In this document: positions 36,527 to 59,426 of the stretch, piece after piece | How positions within the stretch are numbered: position 1 is the stretch's first letter | Layout: each line of letters begins with the position of its first letter | Source of the DNA: Escherichia coli | GTDB taxonomy: Bacteria > Pseudomonadota > Gammaproteobacteria > Enterobacterales > Enterobacteriaceae | Reading direction: 5' to 3' (one strand) | Assembly: GCF_045037415.1 (NCBI RefSeq) | Contig: NZ_CP173440.1 | Length of the DNA: 64,000 bases | The notes under the pieces: model-generated | Database searches by the model: none | What the model was told of the DNA's origin: nothing | What the model saw: only the letters and a program-made list of their open reading frames with translations | Translations under genes and position numbers: made by a program

Positions 36527-37579
36527 TTACAATTGTGAAATTGAACGTGATACTTCTTCCGGGAAAAGTTGCTCAAGCAAAATTTCAGCTTTACTACATG
36601 CTTCAGAAGATAACTTAGACGTGAATGCAATTTTAAACCCAACAGAAATTTCTTCATCAAGGACTTTGGAGGTAGAAATCCATGAAATCAATTCACGAAT
36701 ATCCATCACCAGTTCGTCATCTTTCAGATTGTTAAGTTCAAAAGCAACTTTTGCAAACATTCTTAAACATGAAGGTTTCAAATCAGGAAAATGAGCCTCA
36801 GCTGCACAATACATAGCTTGTTCATCAGGTCGAATCATCGGCAATATTAAAAAACGCTTAATAAATGCAGAGTCTTGGGACTGTGATGAAGCGAAACGCA
36901 TATCCTCTCCACTCATGTTAGTGTTAGCTGTACCAATAAAGCGGGTGTAGCGATTTGCATAAATCAACTCGCCACCTTCTTTACCGGTTGCCCACGGTTT
37001 ACGCTCAAGCGGCATATGAAGCTTAGCTGCCGTATCTGGGTTTATTTTATCTATCTCATCAAGAAGAATGATATGCCCATCACGATAGCCTTGCACAAGG
37101 TCACTATAAACATACCGTGTATTTCCATTTTCTAGCGTTCTCATACCTTCAAGATCATCAATCGATAACTCATTGTTGATTTGTTTGATGGTGATAGGCC
37201 AGTTCAGCATATGGCTGATATATAATGCTAACTCCGTTTTACCAGATCCAGATTCTCCTTGCAGGCAGATGCCAGCAGTTACTTCATTATTTAAAAGTAA
37301 CTTCACCATACGGCGTAGAGTGATCGGATTTGGACGATATTTACTGTTTAACGGAGCACGAAAAGGAGTAACTCTTTTGAAAATAGGTATAACGTCATTT
37401 TCTCCAAAACAGTCAACATTAAAGTGCTCGTTTGCACGGACAATAATGTATTCCTCTTCATCTTGATATTCTATAGCCTTGGTTAACTCATGAGGTTCGA
37501 AATATTTAATTTCTAAATCAGAGTTAACATTCAAAGTTAGAATATTTGCATTGTTGTTAGCAGTAGTAGCGGGTGTCAT
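36527..37579 (-). CDS. AAA+ ATPase, CobS/MoxR (AAA_5)-like
   Basis: Walker A LQGESGSGKTELAL and Walker B IILLDEIDK. Size and layout resemble CobS-like ATPases that pair with vWA proteins. Confidence 0.75.
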   Translation of the reverse strand: MTPATTANNNANILTLNVNSDLEIKYFEPHELTKAIEYQDEEEYIIVRANEHFNVDCFGENDVIPIFKRVTPFRAPLNSKYRPNPITLRRMVKLLLNNEVTAGICLQGESGSGKTELALYISHMLNWPITIKQINNELSIDDLEGMRTLENGNTRYVYSDLVQGYRDGHIILLDEIDKINPDTAAKLHMPLERKPWATGKEGGELIYANRYTRFIGTANTNMSGEDMRFASSQSQDSAFIKRFLILPMIRPDEQAMYCAAEAHFPDLKPSCLRMFAKVAFELNNLKDDELVMDIRELISWISTSKVLDEEISVGFKIAFTSKLSSEACSKAEILLEQLFPEEVSRSISQL

Positions 37580-39974: not shown

Positions 39975-40115
39975 TTTATATACCTTTAAGTTTAGAATTA
40001 AATCCGGAAAAACCATTTACGTAGTTTATTTAGAAATTGGCGAAAGCCGTCGTTTATCACCCTGAAGCAACAAACCGCCTGAGTTTATACTTTTCTGGCA
40101 TTAGAAAGTCCGTAG

Positions 40116-40128
40116 AAAGTTACTTTTT
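40116..40128. promoter_or_regulatory. Intergenic copy of the backbone palindrome (AAAGTTACTTTTT)
   Basis: Lies in the 290-bp gap between the helicase and the next gene. Confidence 0.5.
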
Positions 40129-40307
40129 GAGAGCAATTTAGCTACGAGTTGTGGTAAGACAGATGTGAGTTATCGCACCAGCGCCATTCTTTTGGAAAGA
40201 GGCTCTGGTGTCGAAACTCAAAATTGAGCTACCCATTTATGGATATCTTAGAAGGGATAAAGGTATTAAAAGTAAAACTATTGAGAAATTTATACATCAA
40301 CCCTGTA

Positions 40308-42107
40308 TCATTGTAAACACATATCTTCACTTCCCTCAATAATTGGTATTTCTTCAGCTAACTCAACTACTTTCGGGAACGACTCAGTGATAAACTCTGA
40401 CGGTTTTCCATGCCAGGTAATGTAAAGCTCAAGCTCTGCCCTTGTCATCCCAACAAAAAATAAACGACGCTCCTCTTCTATCCCTTCATCACCGATAACC
40501 TTCGGTGAGGGTATTTGGTCATGGTTACAGTTAATGATTAGTACTTTTTTCCATTCTAGCCCCTTGGAGCCATGGAGCGTGCAGAGACATATGCCGCTTT
40601 GCTCTGTTTCACTAGATCCCTTCTTGTTACCCATGGTCATGCCAGCTGCAATATTTAGCATCTTAAGCCACCCATCTTTTATTGCCCAACGGTAACATGA
40701 CATTAAAGAAATCCGGGTTACTGACGGATCACCTTTCGTATTGGACATCTTGTACCCGGCCATCTCTAACCATTCCTTGATTTTTTTGAAACGGTTTTCT
40801 ATCTCTTCCTTACTTTGCGTGTCTGCCAACATTAGGGTCATATGCTTATGCAGCATTTTAGTGAGCACAGAAGATTCATTGGGTAATTCCGTTTGCTGAA
40901 AAGTAACTTTTCTGACACTCATCTGTTTCCACAACACATCAAGGATTAGCTCATCTTCATTTAGAAACGAAAGCACTCGTTTCATCAGACCTACGTTACC
41001 AGGTTGCCTGAAGAAGGTGAACAGGTGTAGGATATTACTAGGCTCAAGCCCTTCCCAGAAGGATTTCCCCCCTATCCTCGTAACCGGAACTTCAAGATAA
41101 CTTTCCATTTTGTCGAGTGTCGTGTTGTTTCGGCTTAAAATCGCCCAATCATGAGGGTTTTTCTCCACCAGCTCCTTGATCACATCAAATTGGTCTTCTG
41201 CCTTATCCGATCTTATAAAAGTTACTTTTCCTTTGTCCCCTTTTCTGCCTGACACGAGACTCTTTTCATAGCGGGCTTTGTTCTTTCTGATCACTGTATC
41301 AGCAAATTTAAGGATCAAGGGTGCACACCTGAAACATTTGGTGAGGTGAAAAACGTTAGGATTATATGCTTTATCAAACTGACGAAAGATCTTAACTCCA
41401 CCTGCATCTCTGAAACTGTATATTGTCTGGTCATCATCGCCAACGATTGTGGTGTTTATGCCCCTCTTTGCGTGCTCAGATATCCAGGTGAATTGAATAC
41501 CATCTGTGTCCTGAACTTCATCAACAATCAGATGAGTAATACTTAAAGGCCTCATCTTATCGGCACTTAACATGCCCACTACATACTTTGAAAGTGAGTT
41601 AAAATCTGCAACATTATCCTTTTTGCAAAAGCTCATGTACTCGTTGTAGAACGCCACCTGGTCGCGTGTATATTTTATCCTGATAATGTCCGGGTTAAGC
41701 TCCCGGCCAATGCCGTCGATGAATGGCATTATGTCGTTCACACTTTCATGGTAGTTAAGATGTTTTTGTACACGGGATACCATCGCCATTTGTTTGTGTC
41801 CGATTAGAAGCCCTCCTTTCCAACCGGTCTGGTTTACCATTTTTTTTATAAAACCGTGAAAGGTATCGACCTCTATACGGTTGAGAAACCTCGGCTCTAT
41901 CATTTTCTGGAGGCTATTTTTTAAAGAGTCTGTGGCCGCACGGGTAAAGGTTACCAGGGATACCCGGGCCAATGGATGACGTTGAAAAATGGCTTTTGTT
42001 CCCTCCTTCATGGTGAAGGATTTGCCACTCCCTGGACAGGCAATGACCATCGTGTTTTTATCCATATTTTGTATAACACGCTCTTGTTCTTCTGTACTCG
42101 ATGACAT
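40308..42107 (-). CDS. UvrD/Rep-family superfamily-1 helicase
   Basis: Motifs VIACPGSGKSFTM (Walker A), LIVDEVQDTD and GDDDQTIYSFRDAG. I prefer the start at 42107 (AAGGAG 5 nt upstream) to the ORF-track start at 42131. Confidence 0.8.
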   Translation of the reverse strand: MSSSTEEQERVIQNMDKNTMVIACPGSGKSFTMKEGTKAIFQRHPLARVSLVTFTRAATDSLKNSLQKMIEPRFLNRIEVDTFHGFIKKMVNQTGWKGGLLIGHKQMAMVSRVQKHLNYHESVNDIMPFIDGIGRELNPDIIRIKYTRDQVAFYNEYMSFCKKDNVADFNSLSKYVVGMLSADKMRPLSITHLIVDEVQDTDGIQFTWISEHAKRGINTTIVGDDDQTIYSFRDAGGVKIFRQFDKAYNPNVFHLTKCFRCAPLILKFADTVIRKNKARYEKSLVSGRKGDKGKVTFIRSDKAEDQFDVIKELVEKNPHDWAILSRNNTTLDKMESYLEVPVTRIGGKSFWEGLEPSNILHLFTFFRQPGNVGLMKRVLSFLNEDELILDVLWKQMSVRKVTFQQTELPNESSVLTKMLHKHMTLMLADTQSKEEIENRFKKIKEWLEMAGYKMSNTKGDPSVTRISLMSCYRWAIKDGWLKMLNIAAGMTMGNKKGSSETEQSGICLCTLHGSKGLEWKKVLIINCNHDQIPSPKVIGDEGIEEERRLFFVGMTRAELELYITWHGKPSEFITESFPKVVELAEEIPIIEGSEDMCLQ

Positions 42108-42920: not shown

Positions 42921-43033
42921 GAGCGTATTCGTTCAGGTCTTTAGTTATTGGTAATCAGGGCGTTCAAATCGACTTCAACCCCAGCAGTTAATGCTTTGAT
43001 ACCTTCCCAGAGTACGACCGGCACAGGTGCTAT

Positions 43034-44427
43034 GTTCTGCGGGTTTTAATAGGCGGAATACCGACTTCTATTTATTTCCTGCACCTGTTGATTCCGTGCT
43101 GTATATATGGTTATTTATACAGGTTATCTCAATACACACTGAATGCAAAATGCTAATCCAGAAAGCGTATAAATACAGACTCAACCCAACAGATGCACAG
43201 GCGCAACGACTGCGTCAGATGTGCGGCTGCGCCCGTTTTGTCTGGAATTACGCCCTGGCAGAGACCCAGCGCATTCTTGAGACCGGACAAAAACTCCCTT
43301 CCGCCTTTGAGCTGAATAAAATGCTGACAGGATGGAAGAAATTACCTGACCTGGCGTTTTTATCTGATGCCTACACCGACAACCTTCAGCAGAAACTGAA
43401 AGACCTGCATGGGGCCTGGAAACGGTGCTTTGATAAAAAGCTGGCAGCGAAAGCGCCCGTGTTCAAACGTAAAAGCCACGGCAATGACTCTGTTCGTTTC
43501 GTCAATTTTGACAAATACTGCCAGCTTGAGTACAGACGCGTTAAGTTACCCTCGGGGCTGGGCTGGGTGACATTCCGGCAGTCCCGCGCCGTTGTGGGGA
43601 AAATCAAAAACGCAACGGTCAGCCAGCACGCTGGCGGCTGGTATATCTCATTTCAGGTAGAAATGGTTGTCGAACAGCCCGCGCACCCGTCTACGTCTGC
43701 TGTCGGTCTGGATACCGGTGTCAGCAAGCTGGCAACGCTGTCAGACGGCACGGTGTTTGAACCTGTCAACAGCTTTAAGCAGAACCAGAGCAGGCTGGCA
43801 AGGTTACAGCGCCAGCTTGCCCGTAAAGTGAAATTCAGCGCGAACTGGAAGAAGCAGAAAGCAAGAATTTCCCGCTTACATTCGCATATCGCCAACATCC
43901 GCCGCGATTACCTTCACAAAGTCACAACAACAGTCAGCAAAAACCACGCGATGATCGTTATTGAGGACTTGAAGGTTTCCAACATGTCAAAATCGGCAGC
44001 GGGTACGGTAGATGAGCCGGGGCGCAACGTTGCGTCAAAATCAGGTCTTAACCGGGCGATACTGGATCAGGGCTGGTACGAAATGCGCCGCCAGCTCGAA
44101 TATAAGCAACGATGGCGCGGCGGTGAGGTGCTGGCAGTAAATCCGGCATATACCAGCCAGAAATGCGCCTGTTGTGGTCATACAGCGAAGGAAAATCGAC
44201 AATCGCAGGCAAAATTTGTTTGCACGGTATGTGGGTACGAAGCGAACGCTGATGCAAACGGTGCGCGTAATATTTTAGCGGCAGGACATGCCGTGCTTGC
44301 CTGTGGAGGGAAGGTGCAGTCAGACCACCCAACGAAGCAGGAACCTGACACTGAGCGATCAGCGGTCACCCACTAATGGGAATCCCCTATCTGAATCACG
44401 AAGTGTAAAGGCGGGGGAGGATGTCAA
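43034..44427 (+). mobile_element. IS200/IS605-family element carrying tnpB only (IS1341-like derivative)
   Basis: The left boundary is the point where it diverges from its twin's flank (after ...GGCACAGGTGCTAT). The right end shares GGGAATCCCC...GGGGGAGGATGTCAA with the second copy. Confidence 0.65.
43150..44376 (+). CDS. tnpB: TnpB (RuvC-like RNA-guided nuclease, OrfB_IS605 plus zinc ribbon)
   Basis: [36 protein letters not shown]..., IEDLKVSNM, and a C-terminal CxxC...CxxC (QKCACCGH...[20 protein letters not shown]). 408 aa from the ATG at 43150. Confidence 0.85.
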
Positions 44428-44661
44428 TACCACCAGAGATGTAAACTGGAACAATTTAATTCTAAATTATCCATTTGGAGTGGTCGCTTTCTGATTATTA
44501 GTTATCGGTAAGCGGCGCGTCTAAATCGACTTCAACCCCAGCAGTTAATGCTTTGATACCTTCCCAGAACACGACCGGCACAGGTGCTATCGGTTTTCCA
44601 AAGGGTGCTCCCTCCGATGAAGGAGGGAGGGGAATTTGGACGGGGTTGAAAACCCGTGATT

Positions 44662-45087
44662 TTAGCCCCGCTGGTTTTGAATATACTTCTTCACAACTTC
44701 CAGTGGGGCGCCACCGCACGAGCCAGCAAAGTAACTGCGCGACCAAAGTACAGGTTTGCTATAGGCGGCTCGTAGATCGATATATTCATTCCTTAGCCGC
44801 CTGCTGGTGACTGCTTTGAGTGAGTTGACCAGCTTAGATAGTTGCACGGTAGGCGGGTATTCAATCAGCATATGAAGGTGATCAGCATCACCGTCACACT
44901 CCTTTAATTCTGCGCCAAAATCACCACACACCTCAGATACATACTGACGGGCGCTGTTGATATGTAATTCACCAAAAACTTTGCGGCGATACTTGGTCAC
45001 AAACACAATGTGAACATGCAAAAGAAATGCTGCATGGCGGATGCGATTGAATTCACTCTTCACTTGACTACCTGTTGTTTTATACAT
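44662..45087 (-). CDS. tnpA: IS200/IS605 Y1 (HUH) transposase TnpA
   Basis: 141 aa with an HUH motif (HVHIVFVTKYRR) and a C-terminal catalytic Tyr region (LWSRSYFAGSCGGAPLEVVKKYI). Confidence 0.85.
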   Translation of the reverse strand: MYKTTGSQVKSEFNRIRHAAFLLHVHIVFVTKYRRKVFGELHINSARQYVSEVCGDFGAELKECDGDADHLHMLIEYPPTVQLSKLVNSLKAVTSRRLRNEYIDLRAAYSKPVLWSRSYFAGSCGGAPLEVVKKYIQNQRG

Positions 45088-45123
45088 TACATTGGCATCA
45101 ATTTTACTACATACTGAATATAA

Positions 45124-46351
45124 ATGTTAATCCAGAAAGCCTATAAATTCAGACTTAATCCAACCGATGTTCAGGCGCAGAGATTGCGCCAGTTGTGCGG
45201 TTGCGCCCGTTTTGTCTGGAATTATGGCCTGGCAGAGACGCAGCGTATTCTTGAGAACCGGACAAAAACTCCCTTCCGCCTTTGAGCTGAATAAAATGCT
45301 GACAGGATGGAAGAAATTACCTGACCTGGCGTTTTTATCTGATGCCTACACCGACAACCTTCAGCAGAAACTGAAAGACCTGCATGGGGCCTGGAAACGG
45401 TGCTTTGATAAAAAGCTGGCAGCGAAAGCGCCCGTGTTCAAACGTAAAAGCCACGGCAATGACTCTGTTCGTTTCGTCAATTTTGACAAATACTGCCAGC
45501 TTGAGTACAGACGCGTTAAGTTACCCTCGGGGCTGGGCTGGGTGACATTCCGTCAGTCCCGCGACATTGTGGGCAAAATCAAAAACGCAACAGTCAGCCA
45601 GCACGCTGGTAGCTGGTATATCTCGTTTCAGGTAGAAATGGAGGTCGATCAGCCCGCGCACCCGTCTACGTCTGCTGTCGGTCTGGATGCCGGTGTCAGC
45701 AAGCTGGCAACGCTGTCAGACGGCACGGTGTTTGAACCTGTCAACAGCTTTAAGCAGAACCAGAGCAGGCTGGCACGGTTACAGCGCCAGCTTGCCCGTA
45801 AAGTGAAATTCAGTGCGAACTGGAAGAAGCAGAAAGCAAGAATTTCCCGCTTGCATTCTCACATCGCCAATATCCGGCTCGATTACCTTCATAAAGTCAC
45901 AACAACAGTCAGCAAAAACCACGCGATGATCGTTATTGAGGACTTGAAGGTTTCCAGCATGTCAAAATCAGCGGCAGGCGCAGCAGACATGCCGGGGCGC
46001 AATGTTGCGGCTAAATCAGGTCTGAATAAGGCGATATTAGATCAGGGCTGGTACGAGCTTCGCCGCCAGCTTGAGTATAAGCAATCATGGTTGGGTGGGC
46101 AGGTACTGGCTGTCAATCCGGCTTACACCAGCCAGAAATGTGCATGTTGTGGTCATAGGTCAAAGGAAAACCGCAAATCACAAGCGAATTTTGTTTGTCT
46201 TGAATGTGGCTACAAAGAGAACGCCGACATAAACGGCGCTCGTAATATTTTAGCGGCAGGACATGCCGTTTTAGCCTGTGAAGTGAACGGTGCATCAATG
46301 CCGTCAGCAGCAGGAACCAAGCGACTGAGCAATCAGTTAGCCACCCAGTAA
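45124..46351 (+). pseudogene. tnpB: tnpB with a +1 frameshift
   Basis: The ATG at 45124 gives [44 protein letters not shown] and then stops. Compared with copy 1 (CTTGAGACCGG), the extra A in CTTGAGAACCGG (45256/7) shifts the frame. The total length is 1228 nt, against 1227 in copy 1. Confidence 0.75.
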
Positions 46352-46398: not shown

Positions 46399-47543
46399 TC
46401 AAGTAGCTGAACATTTCCAGGAAAGAATTTCCAGGAAAGATATTGCAGCGCCTGAAATGTTCAGCCAGAGTTGCCCCTGACTGACCATGGCGTTGGTTCG
46501 TTTCATGCTCGCCTCGAAAAGCTGGTAGTCAGCCGCTATACCCAACGACTTGCGATACTGCAGCACACCTTTATCTATTTGGTTGAGGGCAAAAGCCCCG
46601 GTGGTGATATTGTGAGCCTGACCAGCTCTTCCAAAAAGCATGGTCGCCACACCTTGCAGAAAGTCACTTTCTTGTCCGGATTCTTCTTTAGCCGGTTCAA
46701 CAATCTGATTCATCTGCCCTATATGTTTCATGATCGATACGCCCTGCGGAGATGCGAACGAAGCCTTCATCGCCGCCCAGGCGTCTGTACAGGATGCATA
46801 CTGCAGACCGGTTGATGTCACCATGGGGACGCTGGCCGTCCTCAGGCTATTCGTCGTCATTGAATCCATCACCGTTTCTATTGACCCAAGGTCTGTAGCA
46901 TATATTTCATTTAATGCCCCCCTCCCAGTGGCGTCTGAACTTCTGAGTACTGGGTCGTTTTAATACAGTCGCGTGCAATAGACTGGATGATTCTGCAGAC
47001 ATCAAAAGTGACAGGTTTTTCGCTCCCGCTCATCGTATTCGGGAAAGCCTGACAGAACCCACTGGATTCCCCGCCCCACTCCATATATTTGACCATTTTT
47101 GTCATTGGCCCCAGCGTCAGGCTGTCATCGAGCGTGTCAGTGACCTGACCCACCGGCGTAAGCGGGTCAAATGCTGCTCACCAGTCCGTAATTAGCCCGT
47201 GCAGTAATCCGGTTGTCAGTTCACCGGTTGACGCAATAAATAACGGTACATCGTCTATGTTCCTGATCTCCCCCGTTTTAACCGATTCCAGTGTGACATC
47301 GGCTTTAATGACGGCAATTGAATAGAACAACAACCCCATTATCAAGGAGAATATAGGGACATCGTTTTATGTGGGGGCAAGGACCCACCGCAGGGATTTA
47401 TAAAACAGGCCAATTGTTGCAGCATATGAAGCAAGCCTGAGCCACTCATTTGAACCATGACTGGAAAAGATCAACGCGATCCCGTTAATAGCTTTATAGA
47501 CGAAATCTATGTCACCAATAGTATAGATAGTAAAATTGCTCAT
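46399..47543 (-). pseudogene. Decayed TraG_N-like (mating-pair stabilisation/pilus assembly) gene
   Basis: From the ATG at 47543 (strong GGAGGTGG RBS) it reads MSNFTIYTIGDIDFVYKAINGIALIF...; further on, ...IDDVPLFIASTGELTTGLLHGL resembles F TraG (DNVPVGLAMPLSLTTRIGHAM). It is interrupted by in-frame TAA, TGA, TAA and TAG codons and by a frameshift before the 157-aa ORF. Confidence 0.5.
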
Positions 47544-47668
47544 TCCACCTCCACTCCATTTATTGAGGGAAACTGACCTCCTTAAGATACGTGGAATGTT
47601 TGGCTAAAATGATGTCAGTTATTGAGTTTGTCAGGTGCATTAAAGCGACTCCTGGCAGCACTACTGAG

Positions 47669-47699
47669 AAAAGTAACTTTCCTGAGCAAGTTACTTTTT
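47669..47699. promoter_or_regulatory. Inverted pair of the backbone palindrome (AAAAGTAACTTT-N6-CAAGTTACTTTTT)
   Basis: The two sites are centred at 47675 and 47692 in a 490-bp intergenic region. Confidence 0.55.
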
Positions 47700-48048
47700 G
47701 GTAGTTTCCCATCGAAGGTTTCTAGGCATTGTGTAAATCACTTATACCGCCTGGTAGAGCGTTCACTTTTTTCGCGTTATAAATAAAATCAACTTCGCTG
47801 AGTAACTTTCTATGTCTTATCATCTTTTCAGCCCATTGGTGTAATCTATATATTTTCACATAGTTAAATTTTATTTTTTCCAAATAAGAGTAGGGGGGCT
47901 CAAAAAGTTAGATATTTTTTTTGCTTGTTCTTTTCAACTTTAACGACTGTTTTTGAGTTTGGTAGCTCGGTACTCCAGGCGAAAAATAGTATCTTGAACG
48001 AGCTTAATTTTGTGAAATAATGATGAAAACAACCACTGGGACACTTCA

Positions 48049-48897
48049 ATGAAAAGAACAATGTCAGCTGTACTGACCTGCACTCTCCTTGCAGGATGCG
48101 CGACACAACCATCGAGTCCAGAAAACCGTATGTTCACAAAAGAACACGGTGTTTACTGGCATGCCGATCCTCAAAAGTCAGTTGCAACGAACGCATACGC
48201 ACTTGCAGGTGTACCAGTAAATGTAGATGAGGCAGAGAATTCAGGAGGGGGAGTTGATGAAGGTCTTGCTTCAAAAATGCTCCTGAACACCGCCACCGGT
48301 GTAATAACAGGCGGGCTTAAAGCTGGAATTGGGATGTTTACGGCATCACTATACAGCGAGGCTGATGCTGAATTTCTAATGGTTCCACAGAGTGTGGTTT
48401 TCGTTTCTAATCCTCGCAATCTTGCTTATGACGACCCATCACTTATAAAAGAAGGGGCTAGAATTGTTATCGAGTCAATAAAGGACCAACCTAAAATTTT
48501 GGGTGCAACTTATGAAGGCCAAATCAACGCCTTGAATGCATGCACAATCACAAAATCTATAATGGGACCTTGGGATAGTTGCGAACTTAAATCAAAGGTG
48601 GAAAATTCAGGGGATGTAGGAAGTGAGTTCTTCAAATACCAGGTTATCCGGCCAGCAACTGGTGATGAATTAGCTCAGCTTTCGTTGCCAAAAGGTAATT
48701 ACTCGATAATTCGATATACTAATATTTTTAGTAAGAATGCTACATTTATGACTAATAACTTTCCAGGTTTTATTCTACAGCCTCAATCAAAGAAAACAGC
48801 ACCTGGATTTCCTAGTGTGACAATTAATAATCTTGAATACTATTTTGTTAAAGGTGATCTTGGTAAAAAAGGATTTCCTCATAAGAAAGTAATTTAA
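48049..48897 (+). CDS. Lipoprotein (282 aa)
   Basis: Signal peptide with a lipobox, MKRTMSAVLTCTLLAGC. Confidence 0.65.
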   Translation: MKRTMSAVLTCTLLAGCATQPSSPENRMFTKEHGVYWHADPQKSVATNAYALAGVPVNVDEAENSGGGVDEGLASKMLLNTATGVITGGLKAGIGMFTASLYSEADAEFLMVPQSVVFVSNPRNLAYDDPSLIKEGARIVIESIKDQPKILGATYEGQINALNACTITKSIMGPWDSCELKSKVENSGDVGSEFFKYQVIRPATGDELAQLSLPKGNYSIIRYTNIFSKNATFMTNNFPGFILQPQSKKTAPGFPSVTINNLEYYFVKGDLGKKGFPHKKVI

Positions 48898-48945: not shown

Positions 48946-51900
48946 TTAATTAATTGAATTACCAGTTACAGGATCAACGTAGACAGAGCCTACCTCACAT
49001 ACACTTGGTCTCGGAAGGTATGAACAATCTACATTGCTGCCATTAATTGCCTGCACATTCTCTTCTCTCGCTTTGGTCATATTGATACTACCCCCCATCG
49101 ACTCCAGTGTTCGCTCCGAGGATAATTGCGCTTCGTTATTTTTATATGGCCCCATATTAGCTACAGTACTCTCTGTGAATGCTGCGTATTCATCCGGGAC
49201 TTCCCCCGCTACAACAGCTGATTCAATATACTCAGTCATATCTATTTTATCCCAGTCAAGTTGTTGCACCTGTGAGATAGTTAATCCCACACAACCACTT
49301 TCTACTGGTTTAATTCCCAATTGCGGATATGCCTGCTGCATTATTACTCTTGATAATAAAGAGTTATAACAGCACATGTCGGTAGCTTTTTTAATGCACT
49401 TCTTAGTGAAGCCAACGTTTAGATATTTAACACAACGATCGGTATCAATGACAAAACATGCCCCTTGGTTTTTGTGAATTGACGCTTCCATCTCTTTTTG
49501 GTCACAAGCCAGAAGCATTTCGAGAAGCATTTTTGTGATTTGATAGGCAGTATATATCCAACCAACTATGTTTAAAGCTAACATAAAATTCTGAACAGCA
49601 CTGGAGAAAACTGCCTGTCCAAGTTGTGTGGTGGCCGTCTTATCAAACACAAAGTCCCTGATTGCATCGGGCAACATGTCGTAAGCTTTATTCATCAACT
49701 GCTGTTTTATTGCAGCAAGGCCGCCGGTCTGTAAGCCGTCTTTGGTGAGTTCTGTTGTAACAGCGGAACCTCCCCCTTCAACTGTTGAAGAGCCAATAAG
49801 TCTCGAGACGTTTCCTGCAATTGATTCATAAGCAGAAGTTAGCGGTTCAGTCACACGTTGCCACATTTGGCCCACGCTTGAAGATACACCTGAGGTCCAT
49901 TGTCCGACAGAGTTCGTCATCGATGCCCACGTACCTGACTCACCACCAGTCCAGGTTGTCAGCTTTGCTGAAATTTTTTCCCAGTTTGTATTTCTGAGCA
50001 TTGTACCGGCTAATATAATTGCCTCTAGTTTCCCAGCTGCACCTTGAGGAGCTTCACAACAATCCGTTTTTGCCAACCCGTTTACAAAGCCTACAGAACG
50101 GCCACACCATTGCTTCTCTCCGGAGAACACAATGCAACTGTTGGGGTCGTTAGGGTCACTACACATAGCATCACCCTGCATGTTCTGAACCATGCTGCTA
50201 TAGGCTGCGACCTTACCGAAATCACTGTTTTGTTCATTCGCACCGGTATTACAAGTACCTCCTGAACATGGGATCATACCAACGCAGGTGTTTGCTTCGT
50301 TTGTTACTGTCACAGTCTTTGTGATTCCTTCATCACAGGTCCATTTTTGTTCGTACATGTAACACTGATTAGTAGCAGAATCGAACCATCCCTCAGCGCA
50401 TGTTTGGCTGGACATAGTGCATGCAGAGTTTGTCGAGTATTTTGAACATGCATCAGGCATATTCTTTATCTGGTCATAGTTGTAACAAGCTTCATTGCCA
50501 TTCTCATCTTTAAGAATATTTCCTGATGCATCATACTGGCATAATTTTTCTTTCCCTAAAGGATCACAAAAATATCCTTCAAGATTAGTTTTCCATGTTA
50601 AGACACCTTTATCACCATCATATAATGGTGAAGCATATTGCAATATAGACTGTGGCAAACGTTTTGTGCCAACATCTAAGTCTGAATACCGATCGAACCT
50701 GCAAAATGAACCAGCTTGCTTGACAACGTCATAACAACCTGGAGGATCCTGTATATGCTTGTCTTCAAGCTTAATATTGTCAAAAATAAGCTCTACTTCA
50801 AAGTATCCTTCCCCACCACCTCCGACCCATACCGTAGAAGACATCTCAACTTCATGATCAGTTTCTTTATAAACGGAGTTTGCAACCTGGCTTGTTATAT
50901 CAATAGGTTCCTTTAATTTATTCGATTTATTTCTCTCCATGCCATTACGTGGTGGGCCATAACCAGGTTCGCGATATTCACCATCGATATGAGCAAAAAT
51001 CTGCTTACCATCAAGATTGACTTGCATGTGGTCATCCCACTCAGCATTTACTATGCTTGCTGATTTTAAGATAGCGTCTTGGTGGAAATGAAGGGTCATG
51101 CTGTTGTCATAAACACCAGTAGACCAGTAATCATTACCACGCTTTCCGAACCATACACGTATGCAATTATCGCCACATACGCTTAGGTCACCATTCCCGC
51201 CTGAGATGTACACTGGAACACTGAAGTCGCGAGTAATAGTGCAACTACCATAATTATCTTTTTTAGGTGCATTGCAGTAATATTCCTTATAATCAGGAAT
51301 ATGTTTTTCTTTTGTTGTGGTAGTTGTCTGTGTTGAACAGTTTTGCAGCCATTGACCCGTTCCAGCTGCAGCGTTCGCTATTTCATTTCTGCCACTTGTA
51401 AACATTGGGTCATTTGGCGAAATATTAGGGGCTGGATTGGATTTTGTTGCAGCCACCAGCGAACGATATGCTTGCCCATCATAACTATTAGCAGTGAATA
51501 ACTGACTCTTACGAGTTTTTATATCGTTAATGAATCCTTTCTCGTCACCATAACTATCACCAGCATTAAACTGAACATCAGCATTATTTTGCTCTGAACT
51601 ATACATTTCAGCTGTATTAGTACTAGTGATCGCGCCTCCAGGATTGGGGTTGTTACTTATAGATATACTTCCATCTTGGTTACGTGAAAGTAACTTTCCA
51701 CCGTTTTCTGAACCTTTTATGTTTATATTATTACCGTTCATGTTGGGTAGCATTACCGTACCAGCGATGTCCGAACCATCAGTTTTGGCATAATTCAAAA
51801 CATCATCATTTGTGAATGTTTTCCCACCATATTTCTTCAGGTCCATTGACGAACTGTTAGTACTATCAAAACCATTTATTTTGTCGGTATAAGAAGGATT

Positions 51901-52131
51901 TTCACTATTCTTATATTTTTCTAAAATGTCCTCTGTAGTTACTGTTGAAGTTCTGTTCGCTGCAGGATTAGAAAGATCAAAATTGTTTTCCAGTTGTTCA
52001 TAAATTTCGTTTGCCGCATAGACTTTCGGTGCCATCACTATATTGATAAGCGTGACATAATACGCCCAACTGAGCGTATTAGTTACGATTGACACAGCTA
52101 CGGCTAAGGAAACTGCCCTTTTAAATTGCAT
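48946..52131 (-). CDS. trhN: TraN/TrhN-like outer-membrane mating-pair stabilisation protein
   Basis: 1061 aa with a signal peptide and a very Cys-rich C-terminal half. Its position after traU/traW matches the IncHI Tra2 order. Confidence 0.75.
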   Translation of the reverse strand: MQFKRAVSLAVAVSIVTNTLSWAYYVTLINIVMAPKVYAANEIYEQLENNFDLSNPAANRTSTVTTEDILEKYKNSENPSYTDKINGFDSTNSSSMDLKKYGGKTFTNDDVLNYAKTDGSDIAGTVMLPNMNGNNINIKGSENGGKLLSRNQDGSISISNNPNPGGAITSTNTAEMYSSEQNNADVQFNAGDSYGDEKGFINDIKTRKSQLFTANSYDGQAYRSLVAATKSNPAPNISPNDPMFTSGRNEIANAAAGTGQWLQNCSTQTTTTTKEKHIPDYKEYYCNAPKKDNYGSCTITRDFSVPVYISGGNGDLSVCGDNCIRVWFGKRGNDYWSTGVYDNSMTLHFHQDAILKSASIVNAEWDDHMQVNLDGKQIFAHIDGEYREPGYGPPRNGMERNKSNKLKEPIDITSQVANSVYKETDHEVEMSSTVWVGGGGEGYFEVELIFDNIKLEDKHIQDPPGCYDVVKQAGSFCRFDRYSDLDVGTKRLPQSILQYASPLYDGDKGVLTWKTNLEGYFCDPLGKEKLCQYDASGNILKDENGNEACYNYDQIKNMPDACSKYSTNSACTMSSQTCAEGWFDSATNQCYMYEQKWTCDEGITKTVTVTNEANTCVGMIPCSGGTCNTGANEQNSDFGKVAAYSSMVQNMQGDAMCSDPNDPNSCIVFSGEKQWCGRSVGFVNGLAKTDCCEAPQGAAGKLEAIILAGTMLRNTNWEKISAKLTTWTGGESGTWASMTNSVGQWTSGVSSSVGQMWQRVTEPLTSAYESIAGNVSRLIGSSTVEGGGSAVTTELTKDGLQTGGLAAIKQQLMNKAYDMLPDAIRDFVFDKTATTQLGQAVFSSAVQNFMLALNIVGWIYTAYQITKMLLEMLLACDQKEMEASIHKNQGACFVIDTDRCVKYLNVGFTKKCIKKATDMCCYNSLLSRVIMQQAYPQLGIKPVESGCVGLTISQVQQLDWDKIDMTEYIESAVVAGEVPDEYAAFTESTVANMGPYKNNEAQLSSERTLESMGGSINMTKAREENVQAINGSNVDCSYLPRPSVCEVGSVYVDPVTGNSIN

Positions 52132-53178: not shown

Positions 53179-54536
53179 TGAGCGGCCTCTTTTTCTGATT
53201 GCTGATTTATACGCGTATACTCGCGTACATCTGCCTGAGCAAACTGCTGTACTTTGAAGTAGGTTCCTTCAACCGATATGATCGTAGGAGTGGACTTAAT
53301 CAGGAACCGGCTAATTATTTCAGGATTGATTTTGTACATCTGCCCATAGAACTGGCCGCGCAACTCCTCTAAATGCTTCCAGCCATCATCACGTTTGATC
53401 CGCGTAAAAATGGGCATCACTTTTCCTTCGCCAAAACGGTGACGAAACTGTATTTTGGCCCATGTCAGCTGCTCGGAATTCATTGGGTCAAAAACGATCA
53501 TTGTCAGTTTCTGTGGAAATTGAGCAAGAGGATTTCCCTTCTGCCCAGCGGCAGCAATGAGGTTACCCTGGTTATCTCTAATATCTTGGTTTACCTGAAT
53601 TGTTGGGTCGATATACCAGATTTTATTCTCGTCAGATACGGGAAGGGACGCCATCCACTGATTTTGCCAAGTTGATTTTATTGCGTTCTTTTTGGCCGCC
53701 TCCCAGTCATATTTATTACTTCTCTCCTCAAGTTCCTGTACAATACTTTTCTCTTTTATAGGGAATGTTTGGGCTGAAACCGGGAAGGTTGTTTTTTCTG
53801 GGTTTTCCTCGATCTGTTTCATGAAATACTTTATGTTAATCGACCCACTAATCTTGTAGGTTTTATCATCTTTTCTGTACACCATCGTTGGAACTTCTTT
53901 TACGCTATACTGGGTAAAACTTTCCGGATCGAGGGTGACTAAAGGTTCTTTTTTTATTTTTGCTTTAGATATATAATCACGCAGCACTACCTGCATCTGA
54001 ATAAGGTTTTCTACACCTTCCTTAAGCCCCCTGAACACCACGCGCGCATTGTTTTCCGATGCTGTTTTAATCAGGTCTATCAATACATAGTCTGGCATGC
54101 TGAATGATGCAAATATTGTCAAGCCATTATCAGTCGATAGTTCTTCATTTTTGTTGTTATCTAATTTACGTTCGAAGTCCTGTGCAGTAATCCCCGACCT
54201 CCCAAACATTTTTTCAACGTTGGAAGACTGGGTTCGCATTGACTCGTTTTTTGACTTGTTAATTGTGTCTGCCTCTTCAGAGAAGGCCTCTGTAGACTGA
54301 TTCTTTTTTATGTCCTGCGCAATATCACTCATCGCTTCCGCTTCTCGCAGCTTACCTGTGTGTTCTATCACCGCACGCACACTGTCGGAGACAGAGCTGG
54401 GATTGTACCGGGGTGTGCCGACAATCGACTCTATGCTTTGAGTCTTTGCATGATCAATAGAGTCATCGGCATATGACAGAGAAGTAGCTAACAGGCAGCT
54501 AAAAAGTAACTTTTTAATACATTCAGAAGATGGCAT
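53175..54536 (-). CDS. trhW: TraW/TrhW-like T4SS protein (long IncH-type form)
   Basis: Taken from the Met at 54536, the signal peptide reads MPSSECIKKLLFSCLLATSLSYA. Gene order is peptidase-W-U-N. The ORF-track start at 54611 is probably too far upstream. Confidence 0.7.
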   Translation of the reverse strand: MPSSECIKKLLFSCLLATSLSYADDSIDHAKTQSIESIVGTPRYNPSSVSDSVRAVIEHTGKLREAEAMSDIAQDIKKNQSTEAFSEEADTINKSKNESMRTQSSNVEKMFGRSGITAQDFERKLDNNKNEELSTDNGLTIFASFSMPDYVLIDLIKTASENNARVVFRGLKEGVENLIQMQVVLRDYISKAKIKKEPLVTLDPESFTQYSVKEVPTMVYRKDDKTYKISGSINIKYFMKQIEENPEKTTFPVSAQTFPIKEKSIVQELEERSNKYDWEAAKKNAIKSTWQNQWMASLPVSDENKIWYIDPTIQVNQDIRDNQGNLIAAAGQKGNPLAQFPQKLTMIVFDPMNSEQLTWAKIQFRHRFGEGKVMPIFTRIKRDDGWKHLEELRGQFYGQMYKINPEIISRFLIKSTPTIISVEGTYFKVQQFAQADVREYTRINQQSEKEAAQ

Positions 54537-55184: not shown

Positions 55185-58100
55185 TCAGTTATTCAATGTA
55201 ATGAAACTTGTCGCTGAATCACCGCTGTCATCGTAAGCCGTTATAGACACCACCAGCTTACCCTTATTTTGAGCTTTGGACAGTGTTGCAGTACTTCCGA
55301 ACACACCACGAACCTGATCATTCACCTTCCAAACATAACTGGAAATCTTGCCGTCAGGATCACTGCATTTTGCAGTAAATGCCCAGCTCAGTTGCGTTTC
55401 AGTGTATGTCAGGTTACATGTAGGAGGCGTGTTCGGTATCACGTCAAAATCAACCACAACAACCCCTCTCTGACCCTGCGTACTGACAACGTCCATTTCC
55501 AGTTTATAACTACCTTCCATGATGTTCTCAAACGTCTGTGACCAGTAATTTTTGCCACCATCGACAGGCTTACCATTCAGCTTAAACGTTACATTGTCAA
55601 TTGAGTCTGCCGAGTGGGCAAGCTTAACACTGGACCTCAAGGACAGGTCCAGCGGGGCCCTCATGAACTTGTTAGAGTATTTGGGAGTAACGCTAATTTC
55701 CATCGGACTCTGTTCGTTCACGATAAAAGTGTAATCAACCCGGGCTTCATTGTTCCTGTTATCCTTCAGGACATACGTCAACGTATGTGTACCCGATTTT
55801 GTTACCTGGAACACTTTCGTCCCGTTATTGTCGCTGGACAGCGTCATCACATTTTTGTCGTATTGCCAGTCCTGGGTGAACACAACTCCAGGATAAGAAA
55901 CATCCACACCAGAGACTGATACGGTGAGTTCCGAAGGTATCATGGTGTATTTCAGTTTTGTATTCAGGCGTGGCTCCGGGAATTTGTATACCCAGGATTT
56001 TACGCTGATTTTCCGTTTTGCTATGGTTCTGTCTTTTGCCTCCGGCATGTAGGCCTGATACGTAAACGTTGCATACCCACGTTCATCTAACATGTCTTCG
56101 GTCAGGACGGTATCCAGCAGCCCCCCCTGTTTTACGCTTCCATCAGGGAGCACCCACTCCTGGACAACTTTAGCATCAGATGAGTACTCGATATTAGGGT
56201 TCGTGTAGGTACCCTGCAAAGTAACTTTTTTACCTACCTCTACCTGCGAGTTCCCCTCAACCTTAACCGACAATTTCTTATGCTTAATGACAGTGACACG
56301 AGCACGAGTTTCTTTCCATGCCGATTTCCCGGCCATCTCGTCGGTTTCGGTGTACCGTACTTTTGCAAAGATATACTTTGGCACCTCCGAGGACGTAATC
56401 ATGTATTTAACCCCCCCCTCAGTCCATTCCTCTCCATCCTCTGACCACTGGACTTCAACTGCACTACCTTGTACATCTTCATTGTTATCAGTCAGTGTCA
56501 CCGGGATGCTATGCCCCTCAAGAACCTTTCCAACCGAGATAACAGGTTTAGGTTCCCGGTAAGCAACCACCGTGAGATTATCGGTATATGAGACCTTACC
56601 TGTGTATTTGTTGGTCAGTTTGGCGCGGTAAAGCCACTTACCTACTTCTTTTTGTTTGATGCTTACGCTTCGAAGTCCGGTCATATCTTCAAGCGTATTC
56701 CAGGTTGATCCATTGTTACTGGACATCTGCCATTCAGTCGGACTCAGGGAATCATAATCATCGGTACTTTTCGTTCTGAATGAGACCATTGCTGACAGAG
56801 GAACTCGGCCTACAATAAGCGATTTAGACAGCCCACCTTCGAGGTTGGCCCCTTTATACACCCTGATACTTGTTGTTGATGTCTCACGTTTGAGTACAAA
56901 ATCTTTAAACGGACTGCGTACCGTAGCTACTGCGATGATGCGGTGACTACCCAGAGTCAGATCGTCCATGTTGAGCTCACCGGTCGCAATCCCCTCAGAG
57001 TTAACGGGCAGATCACCGGTCAGAGGAGTTCGCTCAGTTACCGAAACATCTTTACCGGTTTCTTCATCCGTAACCCATTTAGAGGTAACTTTGTAAACCA
57101 CCACATCCCACTGCCCCATTGTGGAGGCATCGTACAATGTACAGTTACAGCTGTTATTCCATTGGCCGATGTTTACCGATACCGGTACTTTCAAACTCGT
57201 TGCTGATTTACGCTCTGCAACTTTCATATAGGCACGAATACTGAAGTTTGGAACAGTATAAACTTTGAGCACACTGGATGACTTTATACTGGCTTCATTT
57301 TCGTAGGAAGCTTCGATGTTTACATTCGTTTGCGTCCACAATGGCGCTGCAGGTACTTTTATACGCTCAGAATAAGTTACCGGCGTATCACCACCTGATT
57401 TATTCTTGTAGGTTTTAGTTTCAGCGTCCTGGCCTTCAACCTTAGTTGTAAGGACAACGTTAGCCGGTACTGATTTTGCAAGCACCTTAGCTGCGTCCCC
57501 ACCAGTGATATAAACCAGTGCTGTATCCTTACCAAGAGTCTCTACCGTTTTACTCATCTTGTATGAAATTTCAGGTGCAAACGGTTCAACGGCTTTAACG
57601 GTTTTACGGTTATGAGTGGCAATGGCTTTAGAGCCTTTTGTATTAATCACATAGACGTTGTAGTCAAGGACGTTATCGCCAACTTTAGAGAAGTAACCCG
57701 TCAGGCCAGGAACTTTAGACTTCGAGTAAAATTCGAGACCAGATGGAACGTTGTTCCACTGAACATAACAGGCCGTTCCATAAACCGCAGTTCCGAACTG
57801 GCTAAGAAACGCCTGAGCGTCTTCTTCAGTAGAGAAAATCTTACAGGTATTCCCTGATTGCTGAGTAACCAGCGAAGTGTAAGGACGGACGTAACCGTAA
57901 ATCGTAGACGCTGATTCGATGGACTTCAGAGTGAAAGTCATCGGCATATAGGTAAAATCGATTGAATAGGTTTTGGATATACCGTTAACATTCTCAGCAA
58001 CAACCGTCAAAGTATGGACTTTGTTTGTTTCGAGTGACGGCATCGGCTTTAACCGGTAGATCCCTTTGACGTTTGTGGGAGTGTATGAAGCCATGACGTT

Positions 58101-59426
58101 ATCAATGACAACGCTCTTGATGTCGGCAACACCCTCTTCGCCCTGGAATGCAGCAATAACGATCTCATTCAGGAAGTACACCTGGTCCCGCTTAACAAGC
58201 TCTGAGCCGTCCTTGAAAACGGAAACAGATGGTTCATCAGACAGTATAAGTTTAGATTCCGGTTCGGTATAACTGGAATCATTGCCCGCTGTATTAGACA
58301 CAGAATATGTTGCAACGTAAGAAGCGCTGGCCAGATCGCTTATATCAAAAAAATAAACAAATTTACCCGCAACTTCCTGATATCCGGCGACAGGTTGAAG
58401 AGTTCGACGGGACGGAGTTGACCAAATTTTGTTAAAATTAAGCTCCGTACCATCATCTAAAGTAACTTTTGTCATTGGAGAGAAGCTACCATCAGGAGCA
58501 AGTGTGAGCGACATTGCAGCAGGTTTCCACCAGTCATTGGTATCTGACCGGGCAGGAACCGAGACAGCTACAGCGATCGTCTGCGGAGCAACGTAGATAT
58601 CTTTATCTCCGATCTTGAATGACCGAGCTTCTTTAGAGACGTTCCAGAAGGTATTGTCTATCGCTGGAGCGCGGTAATCCCAGCTTAATCTCACCTTAGA
58701 GGTTACTGGTGGGGAGAAGTAATTATTGAACGAGTTTAAGGTTACGCCTACATCCCTGCTTCCGAAATCGGAACTCCCATCACTGATGCCTACGCTTCCG
58801 GTCGTTATAGAACATTTTGAGGCTCCTGCAGCAATGGCGCAGGATGTCCCAGAACCGACAGACGCGACCATATCGTAGTCTCGGGGTTCAACGGTTATAT
58901 CAATATTTGAGAGTGTCTCGTTTTTAATGTATGACGTCAGTGTTGAACCGGAAGAACCGTTGCTCATTGAACCTTTTATAGAAGTAATCACAGGAGCTAC
59001 AGGCGCAACAGTCTTGAAGTTGTACTCCCCTTCCTTGACTATGACTTTTTCACGTTCTGAGCCCGAGTAGTAAACGATTTGCCATGGAAGTTTGATATCC
59101 CCAGCGATGGCAGGGATGCCCTTCAGTGAGAACCCATTAGCAATCGGCATACCGGAATTATTAGGTAACCATTCAAACACACATTTCAGGCTACCAGCCG
59201 TACTTTTGACATTAGGATCAGAGGACACCTCGCATCCCTCAGATACCGGAATAGCTGTAACCGTACTTTCTTTCACGAAGGCCGTATTTACTTGTGAACT
59301 GGTAGAAAATTTGACATCTGGTAATGACGTTTCCAGGGTACCGGAAACCATTATCGATTCTGCGTTTGAAAAAGCACTGAACACAGAACAGAACATCAGG
59401 AAAGAGATTTTATTAATTTTAGTCAT
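55185..59426 (-). CDS. Very large secreted beta-rich surface protein, probably with bacterial Ig-like repeats (resembles the IncHI RSP-type protein)
   Basis: 1413 aa. It has the signal peptide MTKINKISFLMFCSVFSAFSNA and a repetitive T/V/S/K-rich beta-strand composition, and sits just upstream of trhP. The Ig-like call comes from recalled IncHI literature, not a computed domain hit. Confidence 0.55.
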   Translation of the reverse strand: MTKINKISFLMFCSVFSAFSNAESIMVSGTLETSLPDVKFSTSSQVNTAFVKESTVTAIPVSEGCEVSSDPNVKSTAGSLKCVFEWLPNNSGMPIANGFSLKGIPAIAGDIKLPWQIVYYSGSEREKVIVKEGEYNFKTVAPVAPVITSIKGSMSNGSSGSTLTSYIKNETLSNIDITVEPRDYDMVASVGSGTSCAIAAGASKCSITTGSVGISDGSSDFGSRDVGVTLNSFNNYFSPPVTSKVRLSWDYRAPAIDNTFWNVSKEARSFKIGDKDIYVAPQTIAVAVSVPARSDTNDWWKPAAMSLTLAPDGSFSPMTKVTLDDGTELNFNKIWSTPSRRTLQPVAGYQEVAGKFVYFFDISDLASASYVATYSVSNTAGNDSSYTEPESKLILSDEPSVSVFKDGSELVKRDQVYFLNEIVIAAFQGEEGVADIKSVVIDNVMASYTPTNVKGIYRLKPMPSLETNKVHTLTVVAENVNGISKTYSIDFTYMPMTFTLKSIESASTIYGYVRPYTSLVTQQSGNTCKIFSTEEDAQAFLSQFGTAVYGTACYVQWNNVPSGLEFYSKSKVPGLTGYFSKVGDNVLDYNVYVINTKGSKAIATHNRKTVKAVEPFAPEISYKMSKTVETLGKDTALVYITGGDAAKVLAKSVPANVVLTTKVEGQDAETKTYKNKSGGDTPVTYSERIKVPAAPLWTQTNVNIEASYENEASIKSSSVLKVYTVPNFSIRAYMKVAERKSATSLKVPVSVNIGQWNNSCNCTLYDASTMGQWDVVVYKVTSKWVTDEETGKDVSVTERTPLTGDLPVNSEGIATGELNMDDLTLGSHRIIAVATVRSPFKDFVLKRETSTTSIRVYKGANLEGGLSKSLIVGRVPLSAMVSFRTKSTDDYDSLSPTEWQMSSNNGSTWNTLEDMTGLRSVSIKQKEVGKWLYRAKLTNKYTGKVSYTDNLTVVAYREPKPVISVGKVLEGHSIPVTLTDNNEDVQGSAVEVQWSEDGEEWTEGGVKYMITSSEVPKYIFAKVRYTETDEMAGKSAWKETRARVTVIKHKKLSVKVEGNSQVEVGKKVTLQGTYTNPNIEYSSDAKVVQEWVLPDGSVKQGGLLDTVLTEDMLDERGYATFTYQAYMPEAKDRTIAKRKISVKSWVYKFPEPRLNTKLKYTMIPSELTVSVSGVDVSYPGVVFTQDWQYDKNVMTLSSDNNGTKVFQVTKSGTHTLTYVLKDNRNNEARVDYTFIVNEQSPMEISVTPKYSNKFMRAPLDLSLRSSVKLAHSADSIDNVTFKLNGKPVDGGKNYWSQTFENIMEGSYKLEMDVVSTQGQRGVVVVDFDVIPNTPPTCNLTYTETQLSWAFTAKCSDPDGKISSYVWKVNDQVRGVFGSTATLSKAQNKGKLVVSITAYDDSGDSATSFITLNN

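Follow-up and report, generated by a model that had tools for sequence, protein, structure and literature searches.

Two copies of a short palindromic box, AAAGT(A/T)ACTTT, stand 17 bp apart in an intergenic gap of a 64,000-nucleotide stretch of Escherichia coli DNA (NCBI RefSeq assembly GCF_045037415.1, contig NZ_CP173440.1), which is referred to below as the window and whose first base is position 1. The pair is located between a broken minus-strand gene (46399-47543), a decayed TraG_N paralogue, and the plus-strand gene orf4 (48049-48897), near trhN. We lean towards regarding it as a double copy of a box specific to plasmids of incompatibility group H (IncH), that is, a dyad-symmetric site for a dimeric, plasmid-encoded DNA-binding protein, which would act as an operator or loading site of high occupancy. 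Binding by a protein, its regulatory effect and the identity of the binder are what we infer from sequence comparison. The window belongs to the backbone of a large Klebsiella-type IncHI1B (pNDM-MAR-type)/IncFIB hybrid plasmid, with a resistance island in about its first 11.6 kb and IncH-type backbone from near 13 kb; the segment 46400-49000 is shared at 100% identity with many plasmids of this kind, among them pKpvST147B_virulence (NZ_CP040726.1), hereafter pKpvST147B.

Structure and conservation of the box pair

The pair and the nearby sequence once grouped with it are the following, all without strand.

47670-47680: left box, AAAGTAACTTT, perfect 11-mer; the nearer of the two to the start of the minus-strand TraG_N-paralogue gene
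47687-47697: right box, cAAGTTACTTT, one mismatch, at the first base
47670-47697: composite of 11 + 6 + 11 = 28 bp, with the spacer CCTGAG, which differs among lineages
47799-47809: 'third copy', TGAGTAACTTT, two mismatches to the 11-mer; judged a chance match outside the element

The original prediction, made from the letters of the window, had described two copies of a palindrome 17 bp apart centre to centre, with opposite central bases, and a third, imperfect copy at about 47806. The first two are read exactly as described, at 47669-47680 (AAAAGTAACTTT) and 47687-47699 (CAAGTTACTTTTT), with their centres at 47675 and 47692. The central bases are opposite in the window (A, then T), but this is not a conserved trait, as CP034054 has A at both centres. 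Read as an inverted repeat, the pair has perfect 11-nt arms and an 8-nt loop; a perfect hairpin is not the conserved property either, because the right box of CP034054 has a central A. The third copy must be given up. Sites with exactly two mismatches number 32 in the window against about 23 expected, which is near chance, and the position is not conserved in three related lineages, where it reads GAGTATCTTTC, GGCTGCTATTC and GAGTCTCTTAC.

The pair was aligned across four lineages with 75-83% identity, namely the window, pKP29-tmexCD1 (pKP29), CP034054 and pKP18-2110-2-1. Within the boxes 19 of 22 columns are invariant, as against 243 of 498 (49%) among the other intergenic columns (Fisher P=4e-4, four lineages). 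Only one of the six spacer columns is invariant, and the spacing of 17 bp is kept in all four lineages. In this alignment the pair stands out as a phylogenetic footprint whose spacer is free to vary. The left box is invariant in three of the four lineages and shows a single T>C change in pKP29, and the right box is a perfect AAAGTWACTTT (W, A or T) in all three relatives of the window. Both lineages with an intact paralogue possess two perfect boxes, whereas both lineages with a decayed paralogue (the window and pKP29) have one mismatch in one box; this contrast, with only n=4, fits a site that may once have served the paralogue promoter and is now relaxing.

The spacing of 17 bp is also found, and is also conserved, at a second locus. 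In pKpvST147B a pair with the identical 11+6+11 arrangement is found at 273832/273849 (273832-273859), at the trhF/trhH junction, and is identical in four lineages (81-100% identity) save for changes in the spacer. This second pair is located within coding sequence, which makes its conservation less telling, and R27 has one box there. Close pairs are rare, nearly all boxes being solitary.

The box family in IncH plasmids

The window contains 20 occurrences of the core AAGTWACTT where 0.68 would be expected, none of 100 dinucleotide-preserving shuffles reaches 20, and the 11-mer with at most one mismatch occurs 27 times against 1.88 expected. For the box count pKpvST147B was assembled in full (339 kb). 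It contains 84 copies, all in IncH-type backbone or in segments derived from it, and none in about 122 kb of resistance and virulence DNA; the motif is the commonest 8- to 11-mer of the backbone. The logo of the 84 aligned copies is RAAAGTWACTTTY, with information confined to 13 positions (-6 to +6). As nothing is conserved outside these 13 bp, the box is a short site rather than a mobile repeat. There are 44 copies in R27, the prototype of IncHI1 (Salmonella Typhi), 14 in the first 50 kb of R478 (IncHI2, Serratia) and a single one in 40 kb of an IncC plasmid. These counts mark the box as characteristic of the entire IncH group (IncHI1, IncHI2 and IncHI1B).

A scan of one genome per species with the pattern AAGTWACTT-N8-AAGTWACTT gave at least 120 matches, nearly all of them chance occurrences or unrelated 17-bp tandem repeats in unrelated taxa; among the matches listed only a Klebsiella grimontii contig is relevant, and the scan is uninformative on distribution. 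Variants with a central G or C (AAAGTSACTTT) were noted at 31159, 46660 and 61479 of the window and at 38321, 38533, 46272, 117797, 119600 and 162626 of R27; they are rarer than the A/T-centred form but probably above chance. Queries with the motif string, or with IncH together with palindrome, ParB, KorB or operator, found no description of the box in the searchable literature, outside which most subscription-journal papers fall.

Placement and selection of the copies

In pKpvST147B, 43 of 76 backbone copies are located in annotated intergenic DNA, although non-coding sequence makes up 24% of the backbone (binomial P=9e-10), and about 12 further copies are within 30 nt of a start or stop codon. 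At least four genes receive their TAA stop codon from a box (59550-59560 in the window; 2777, 10388 and 11064 in pKpvST147B). Eight or nine copies stand 105-117 bp upstream of a start codon, the genes concerned including mobI, the first gene where R27 has its R operon, and both orphan parB-like genes discussed below. The central base on the sense strand is A in 12 cases and T in 21, with no significant bias, and recognition therefore looks symmetric, at the level of double-stranded DNA. When the sites were oriented by their downstream gene no information content appeared in the flanks, so that no fixed promoter architecture is evident.

Nucleotide BLAST of the site flanks against R27 spanned only 7 of the 84 sites, and protein-guided mapping was used instead. 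Seventeen intragenic copies could thus be mapped onto R27, and six of them, in trhN, rsp (twice), trhI, trhH and the C5-methyltransferase gene, are matched by an exact box at the identical codon in R27, the proteins being 49-71% identical; the chance survival of an exact 9-mer at such divergence is roughly estimated at 1 in 100. An additional R27-conserved case, in trhU, is visible by DNA alignment only. Intergenic placements that recur in both R27 and R478 are those downstream of repHI1B, downstream of trhI, in the rsp-trhF gap and in the oriT/mobI region. Comparison across the lineages indicates that the box family is under purifying selection. The solitary intragenic copies had originally been taken for poorer sites than the pair, a contrast that stems from looking at the window alone and does not hold: over the whole plasmid the majority of copies stand singly, in intergenic DNA or at the edges of genes, and several intragenic ones are positionally conserved in R27.

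The other copies of the family in the window, again without strand, are distributed as follows.

17000-17010: AAAGTAACTTc, intergenic, 105 bp upstream of a start codon
22212-22222: intragenic, in a hypothetical gene
28183-28193: within the Tus-like gene
30880-30890: 5' end of a small gene
33984-33994: within the VWA-domain gene
35381-35391: gene junction, 27 nt before the stop of the DUF3150 gene and 91 bp upstream of the VWA-domain gene (the DUF3150 gene's upstream neighbour)
37294-37304: AAAGTAACTTc, within an AAA ATPase gene
40116-40126: intergenic, downstream of trhI; in the same gap R27 has a pair with 14-bp spacing and R478 one copy
40900-40910: in the trhI helicase gene; R27 has the same codon position
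41218-41228: in trhI
51687-51697: in trhN; same position in R27 and in the relatives with 75-83% identity
53160-53170: 5' end of trhU (+13); same place in R27 and R478
54503-54513: trhF/trhW junction
56218-56228: in the rsp-like Ig-domain gene; same codon position in R27
58459-58469: in the rsp-like gene; same codon position in R27
59550-59560: provides the TAA stop of the gene upstream of rsp
59774-59784: intragenic
61155-61165: divergent gap, 245 bp upstream of htdA

The pair as a proposed double operator or loading site

As a double operator or loading site, the pair would be bound by a protein that acts on about 40-85 sites over the plasmid backbone and controls a plasmid-wide regulon like that of KorB with its OB sites on RK2. 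The two sites would then form part of a divergent control region between the TraG_N-paralogue gene and orf4, 109-149 bp upstream of the paralogue start, and would serve the paralogue promoter and possibly orf4 at a distance. In the window the paralogue is decayed, and degeneration has started in one of the two sites. The pair is better placed for the minus-strand paralogue, a pseudogene in the window, than for orf4: the paralogue start codon is 132 and 149 bp from the box centres and orf4 about 350 bp, and in CP034054 and pKP18-2110-2-1 the box centres are found 109/126 and 118/135 bp, respectively, upstream of the intact paralogue start.

Two promoter-like sequences were identified in the gap.

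47994-48021, plus strand: sigma-70-like promoter candidate for orf4, TTGAAC-16-AATAAT with an upstream TG; a consensus match only
47638-47643, minus strand: TTAATG, a -35-like hexamer starting 32 bp from the left box centre, without a convincing -10; a weak lead

The candidate at 47994-48021 is located in the best-conserved block of the gap and is the sole well-conserved sigma-70-like promoter there, about 320 bp from the pair. The offset between box and -35 hexamer seen on the minus strand is found again, with clearer -35 and -10 elements, at the boxes before the parB-like genes A and B and before a DUF4942 gene. The promoter regions upstream of the latter two in pKpvST147B (311231, parB-like B; 325340, DUF4942 gene) were also observed to have in common the sequence GGGG(C/G)TTGATG-N16-TATCCTGG; as it stands at equal distance from the box in both, a duplicated promoter module is suggested.

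Two properties expected of dispersed operators are present, namely a short dyad-symmetric site in many copies (84 in the backbone, 44 in R27 and 14 in 50 kb of R478) and a ParB-family protein on the same replicon (two orphan ParB-like genes besides the canonical ParB). The view of the pair as an operator or nucleation site, which the original prediction had put forward, is upheld in part. It keeps the conserved dyad-symmetric element in a divergent gap of promoter size, the intergenic enrichment and the clusters upstream of regulator-like genes, and loses the third copy, a chance match, and the contrast with solitary copies; no promoter is shown at the pair itself.

Candidate binding proteins

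Two genes of the IncH backbone encode orphan ParB-like paralogues, which share 31% identity over the N-terminal domain and helix-turn-helix (HTH), are kept in IncHI1, IncHI2 and IncHI1B, and are mostly annotated as 'hypothetical' or 'DNA-binding protein'. ParB-like A (392 amino acids) is encoded at 40081-41259 of pKpvST147B and has an R27 homologue at 45191-46348, annotated 'DNA-binding protein'; ParB-like B (413 amino acids) is encoded at 309990-311231, and its homologue in R27 at 92336-93541. The two proteins match PHROG 1033, 'ParB-like partition protein' (E=3e-23 for A and 1e-23 for B), both align with Spo0J across the N-terminal domain and HTH, and their R27 homologues score at or above the Pfam HTH_ParB cut-off. 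They share a box-II-like motif, RQG(N/H)CRxRA, in place of GERRxRA. The recognition helix of B keeps an (S/T)xxH(V/L)R pattern across three lineages. In viral contigs, 4 loci with remote relatives (22-29% identity) of A and B were found, without an over-represented palindrome.

Both genes are preceded by clusters of the box. The densest 800-bp cluster of pKpvST147B (6 sites in 750 bp) is found directly upstream of B, and one of the three next-ranked clusters, of 3 sites each, is upstream of A. Two perfect boxes stand before B at -100 and -218 in R27 and at -96 and -222 in an IncHI2 plasmid, where they are the only two in the 7.1-kb locus. On this circumstantial evidence A and B would be the leading candidates for the binder, and are offered as a lead.

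The canonical, ParA-partnered ParB is of the P1/SopB type (PF08775). In pKpvST147B tandem repeats of 66 bp are found both upstream of parA (41 copies, 33574-36256) and downstream of parB (3.4 copies, 30082-30303); each unit contains the inverted repeat GAACAAC-GGGG-TTGTTTTC, and a comparable array is present at 25.3-28.5 kb of R27. These arrays are probably the centromere of the P1/SopB-type ParAB system. The boxes do not resemble a canonical parABS centromere, with only one of them within 3 kb of parAB and the operon flanked by its own 66-bp arrays, and by inference from the type of the protein and from these arrays the canonical ParB was rejected as binder of the box.

Points against an operator and alternative explanations

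Several observations weigh against the operator reading. A scan for promoter and terminator consensus sequences found none convincing at the pair, and the preferred offset between box and -35 hexamer is weak, being seen at 4 of 20 candidates in pKpvST147B and at 1 in R27. Many boxes are located deep within long operons, and a simple promoter-operator model does not account for them. As the adjacent gene is dead in the window, the pair may be a functionless relic. On the side of the proteins, the recognition helix of A is poorly conserved with respect to R27 despite the identical motif, and an AlphaFold2 model of A built from 13 close homologues reached a predicted local distance difference test score (pLDDT) of 49 and was left unused. 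An inverted repeat TTCAC-N6-GTGAA, present once each in pKpvST147B (311325) and R27 (92155), just upstream of B and beside the boxes, could be the true operator of B. Its half-sites were seen to resemble a palindrome of IncC plasmids described below.

A first alternative is that the box is bound by a protein that is not ParB-like, such as the DNA-binding arm of the TrhR/TrhY-HtdA circuit, another conserved IncH protein or a recruited Enterobacterales host protein; we consider this rather unlikely, yet a serious contender. It is favoured by the existence of the separate, unique inverted repeat in the promoter of ParB-like B, and by the identity of the box in IncHI1, IncHI2 and IncHI1B while plasmid proteins stand at 25-50% identity, which suits a very conserved binder, for example a host factor. 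In many-site systems such as parS and ParB, however, invariant sites beside divergent binders are normal, and to our knowledge AAAGTWACTTT matches no consensus of an enterobacterial regulator.

The R27 regulon bears both on the double-operator reading and on this alternative. In an htdA mutant of R27, 139 of 181 expressed genes are up, tra and non-tra alike; TrhR and TrhY are activators, which HtdA counteracts at the protein level (PMC7366339). No cis element or DNA-binding motif for this HtdA-dependent, plasmid-wide control was found in the searchable literature (PMC7366339), which counts in favour of both. The small proteins at the expected trhR/trhY position speak against the alternative, as they have no DNA-binding domain match and carry N-termini like those of signal peptides or membrane proteins; with such proteins in the circuit, a separate DNA-binding component is plausible. 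The R27 box at 11570 is located within the rsp-trhP intergenic region, in which an internal promoter has been demonstrated (PMC7366339). An orphan ParB-family clamp loading at the 40-85 boxes, paired ones like the present two among them, as at a parS-like array, might be the missing DNA-binding part of the HtdA-dependent, temperature-controlled regulon of R27, a proposal that is speculative and that we hold to be unlikely as it stands.

A second alternative takes the pair not as two protein sites but as a hairpin, either an intrinsic terminator or attenuator in RNA or a cruciform in DNA. The arms of 11 nt are 100% complementary around the 8-nt loop and are followed by TTTTT on the plus strand, and the predicted RNA fold has an energy of -16.5 kcal/mol (z=-2.6). 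The pair nevertheless lacks the features of an intrinsic terminator: the arms are A+T-rich, the terminator scan is negative there, and no gene runs into the pair on either strand, in the window or in its relatives. With A at both centres in CP034054 the central base pair is broken without compensation, an Rfam search gave no match for the pair, and the arms are the very box that is found more than 80 times in solitary form, which with a loop of 1 nt cannot fold. This explanation is therefore very unlikely.

Another possibility is that a tyrosine recombinase, such as the dimer-resolving enzyme of the plasmid, uses the 11+6+11 composite as its core site. The composite has the geometry of an Xer-type core, with two 11-bp arms and a centre of 6-8 bp (PMC11724359), at both pairs, and IncH plasmids encode a tyrosine recombinase without a defined site. 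Against this, the tyrosine recombinase system of R27 works while the sole close box pair of R27 has 14-bp spacing, and the R27 xrs site (AGTACATATACCAAAGATTATGTTAAAT) is unrelated to the boxes. A distance of 21 kb separates the composite from the recombinase gene, each arm is a palindrome in its own right with some 80 solitary copies, and two composites on one plasmid would risk large rearrangement between them. We regard such a role as very unlikely too.

That the motif is non-functional, arising from composition or chance, from a miniature mobile repeat (of the type of repetitive extragenic palindromes or miniature inverted-repeat transposable elements) or as a restriction-modification target, is hardly credible: backbone and motif are both A+T-rich and the plasmid has a C5-methyltransferase beside a type II endonuclease, but none of the 100 shuffles reaches the observed count, the 84 copies carry no information outside -6 to +6 as such repeats would, copy positions are conserved between IncHI1 and IncHI1B, the IncC plasmid with its single copy in 40 kb is of similar ecology, and restriction targets are usually avoided whereas the box is about 30-fold enriched. 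A Tus/Ter-like reading was considered, as IncH plasmids encode a Tus homologue and the sequence GTAACT is common to the box and the Ter sites of E. coli, and was rejected, a palindromic box in 40-85 copies being incompatible with polar fork arrest.

Comparison with known systems

The closest parallel to the double-operator reading is provided by KorB and its OB sites in the IncP-1 plasmid RK2, and by KorB of the IncU plasmid RA3. KorB, a CTPase clamp of the ParB family, is loaded at scattered palindromes of odd length (13 bp), TTTAGC(G/C)GCTAAA, from which it slides and so represses promoters as far as 1.5 kb away (PMC11790492). The IncH box is likewise a short odd palindrome with a degenerate centre, AAAGT(A/T)ACTTT, and it likewise occurs in many backbone copies, at promoters, far from them or within genes, on plasmids with ParB-family genes. 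Sliding of the KorB kind would account for the IncH boxes that stand away from promoters. RK2 has about a dozen OB sites, in contrast to the 44-84 boxes of IncH plasmids, and the IncH candidates differ from KorB in being orphans without a ParA partner and in having G(N/H)CRxRA instead of GERRxRA.

Chromosomes carry comparable arrays. The Noc-binding sites (NBS) and the parS and matS sites comprise tens of palindromes of 13-16 bp, many of them intragenic, which are under selection and are bound by a dimeric HTH protein, of the ParB family in the case of Noc and parS. The IncH boxes resemble them as tens of short palindromes dispersed over a replicon, partly intragenic and under selection. These arrays serve chromosome organisation, in division-site control and segregation, whereas the box is carried by plasmids, is found preferentially between genes and at their boundaries and is clustered upstream of particular genes, and so looks more regulatory.

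A related plasmid family appears to have its own set. IncC plasmids, relatives within MOBH/MPF_F, also possess a dispersed, over-represented palindrome. The IncC plasmid NZ_CP132611.1 encodes an orphan ParB that is a homologue of A and B of IncH, and within 40 kb of it a perfect 18-bp palindrome, ACTTTCACATGTGAAAGT, is found 7 times, with 6 copies between genes and 1 at a gene 3' end, at 288, 3872, 4331, 9646, 12982, 24026 and 27441, one of them upstream of parA-korB. It differs from the IncH box in sequence, in its even length and in having fewer copies, and the IncC plasmid has a true KorB-domain ParB beside ParA; it looks like an analogous dispersed operator set. Orphan plasmid ParB-like proteins are also known from the F plasmid, whose leading region encodes YfjB/HerB, a non-partition protein with a CTP-binding domain and HTH that binds the host chromosome and for which no parS-like motif was found (PMC13370423). 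A and B are likewise orphan ParB-like proteins of plasmids, but they have about 400 amino acids, unlike HerB (71.5 kDa), and IncH plasmids themselves carry a clear candidate motif.

IncH plasmids are clinically important large carriers of resistance and virulence (multidrug resistance in typhoid, mcr-1, NDM and hypervirulence hybrids), and their conjugation is temperature-controlled through an H-NS/Hha, TrhR/TrhY and HtdA circuit that acts on most plasmid genes. The conserved box of 11-13 bp offers a concrete cis-element handle on this circuit. Should the binder prove to be a ParB-like clamp, the KorB paradigm of long-range silencing would extend to a second major plasmid group, at a much higher density of sites. 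The box can also be used as a simple sequence marker of IncH backbone DNA in mosaic plasmids.

The locus and neighbouring genes

The genes around the pair are these.

46399-47543, minus strand: decayed TraG_N-paralogue gene, in fragments, with Pfam TraG_N on the fragments
48049-48897, plus strand: orf4, lipoprotein gene with a lipobox; homologue of the R27 lipoprotein beside trhN
48946-52131, minus strand: trhN, adjoining orf4

The flanking genes had been called a decayed traG_N-like gene and a lipoprotein gene, and both calls are borne out. The open reading frame (ORF) fragments 47367-47543 and 47178-47345 correspond to Pfam TraG_N positions 1-48 and 66-117, and the N-terminus of the orf4 product, MKRTMSAVLTCTLLAGC, is a lipobox, its R27 homologue carrying a lipoprotein annotation. 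The non-coding gap between them measures 505 bp and not the 490 bp originally given.

The TraG_N paralogue is intact, and divergent from orf4, in CP034054 (1313 amino acids) and pKP18-2110-2-1 (1310 amino acids), and is also decayed in pKP29. Its decayed 5' end (47350-47557) shows 78-84% DNA identity to the 5' end of the true trhG (TraG_N) of Tra1 in related plasmids, from which it follows that the paralogue is the product of a trhG duplication. An element of the IS200/IS605 family, with tnpA between two TnpB genes, occupies 43027-46351 and adjoins the decayed paralogue; its insertion may have caused the decay, since lineages without the element there have an intact paralogue. Farther away, the window has an insertion of about 2 kb with respect to pKpvST147B at approximately 23129-25111, between an hha-like gene and a tyrosine recombinase gene, and this insertion includes an ORF of 495 amino acids, the size of the group II intron ltrA gene found elsewhere in these plasmids.

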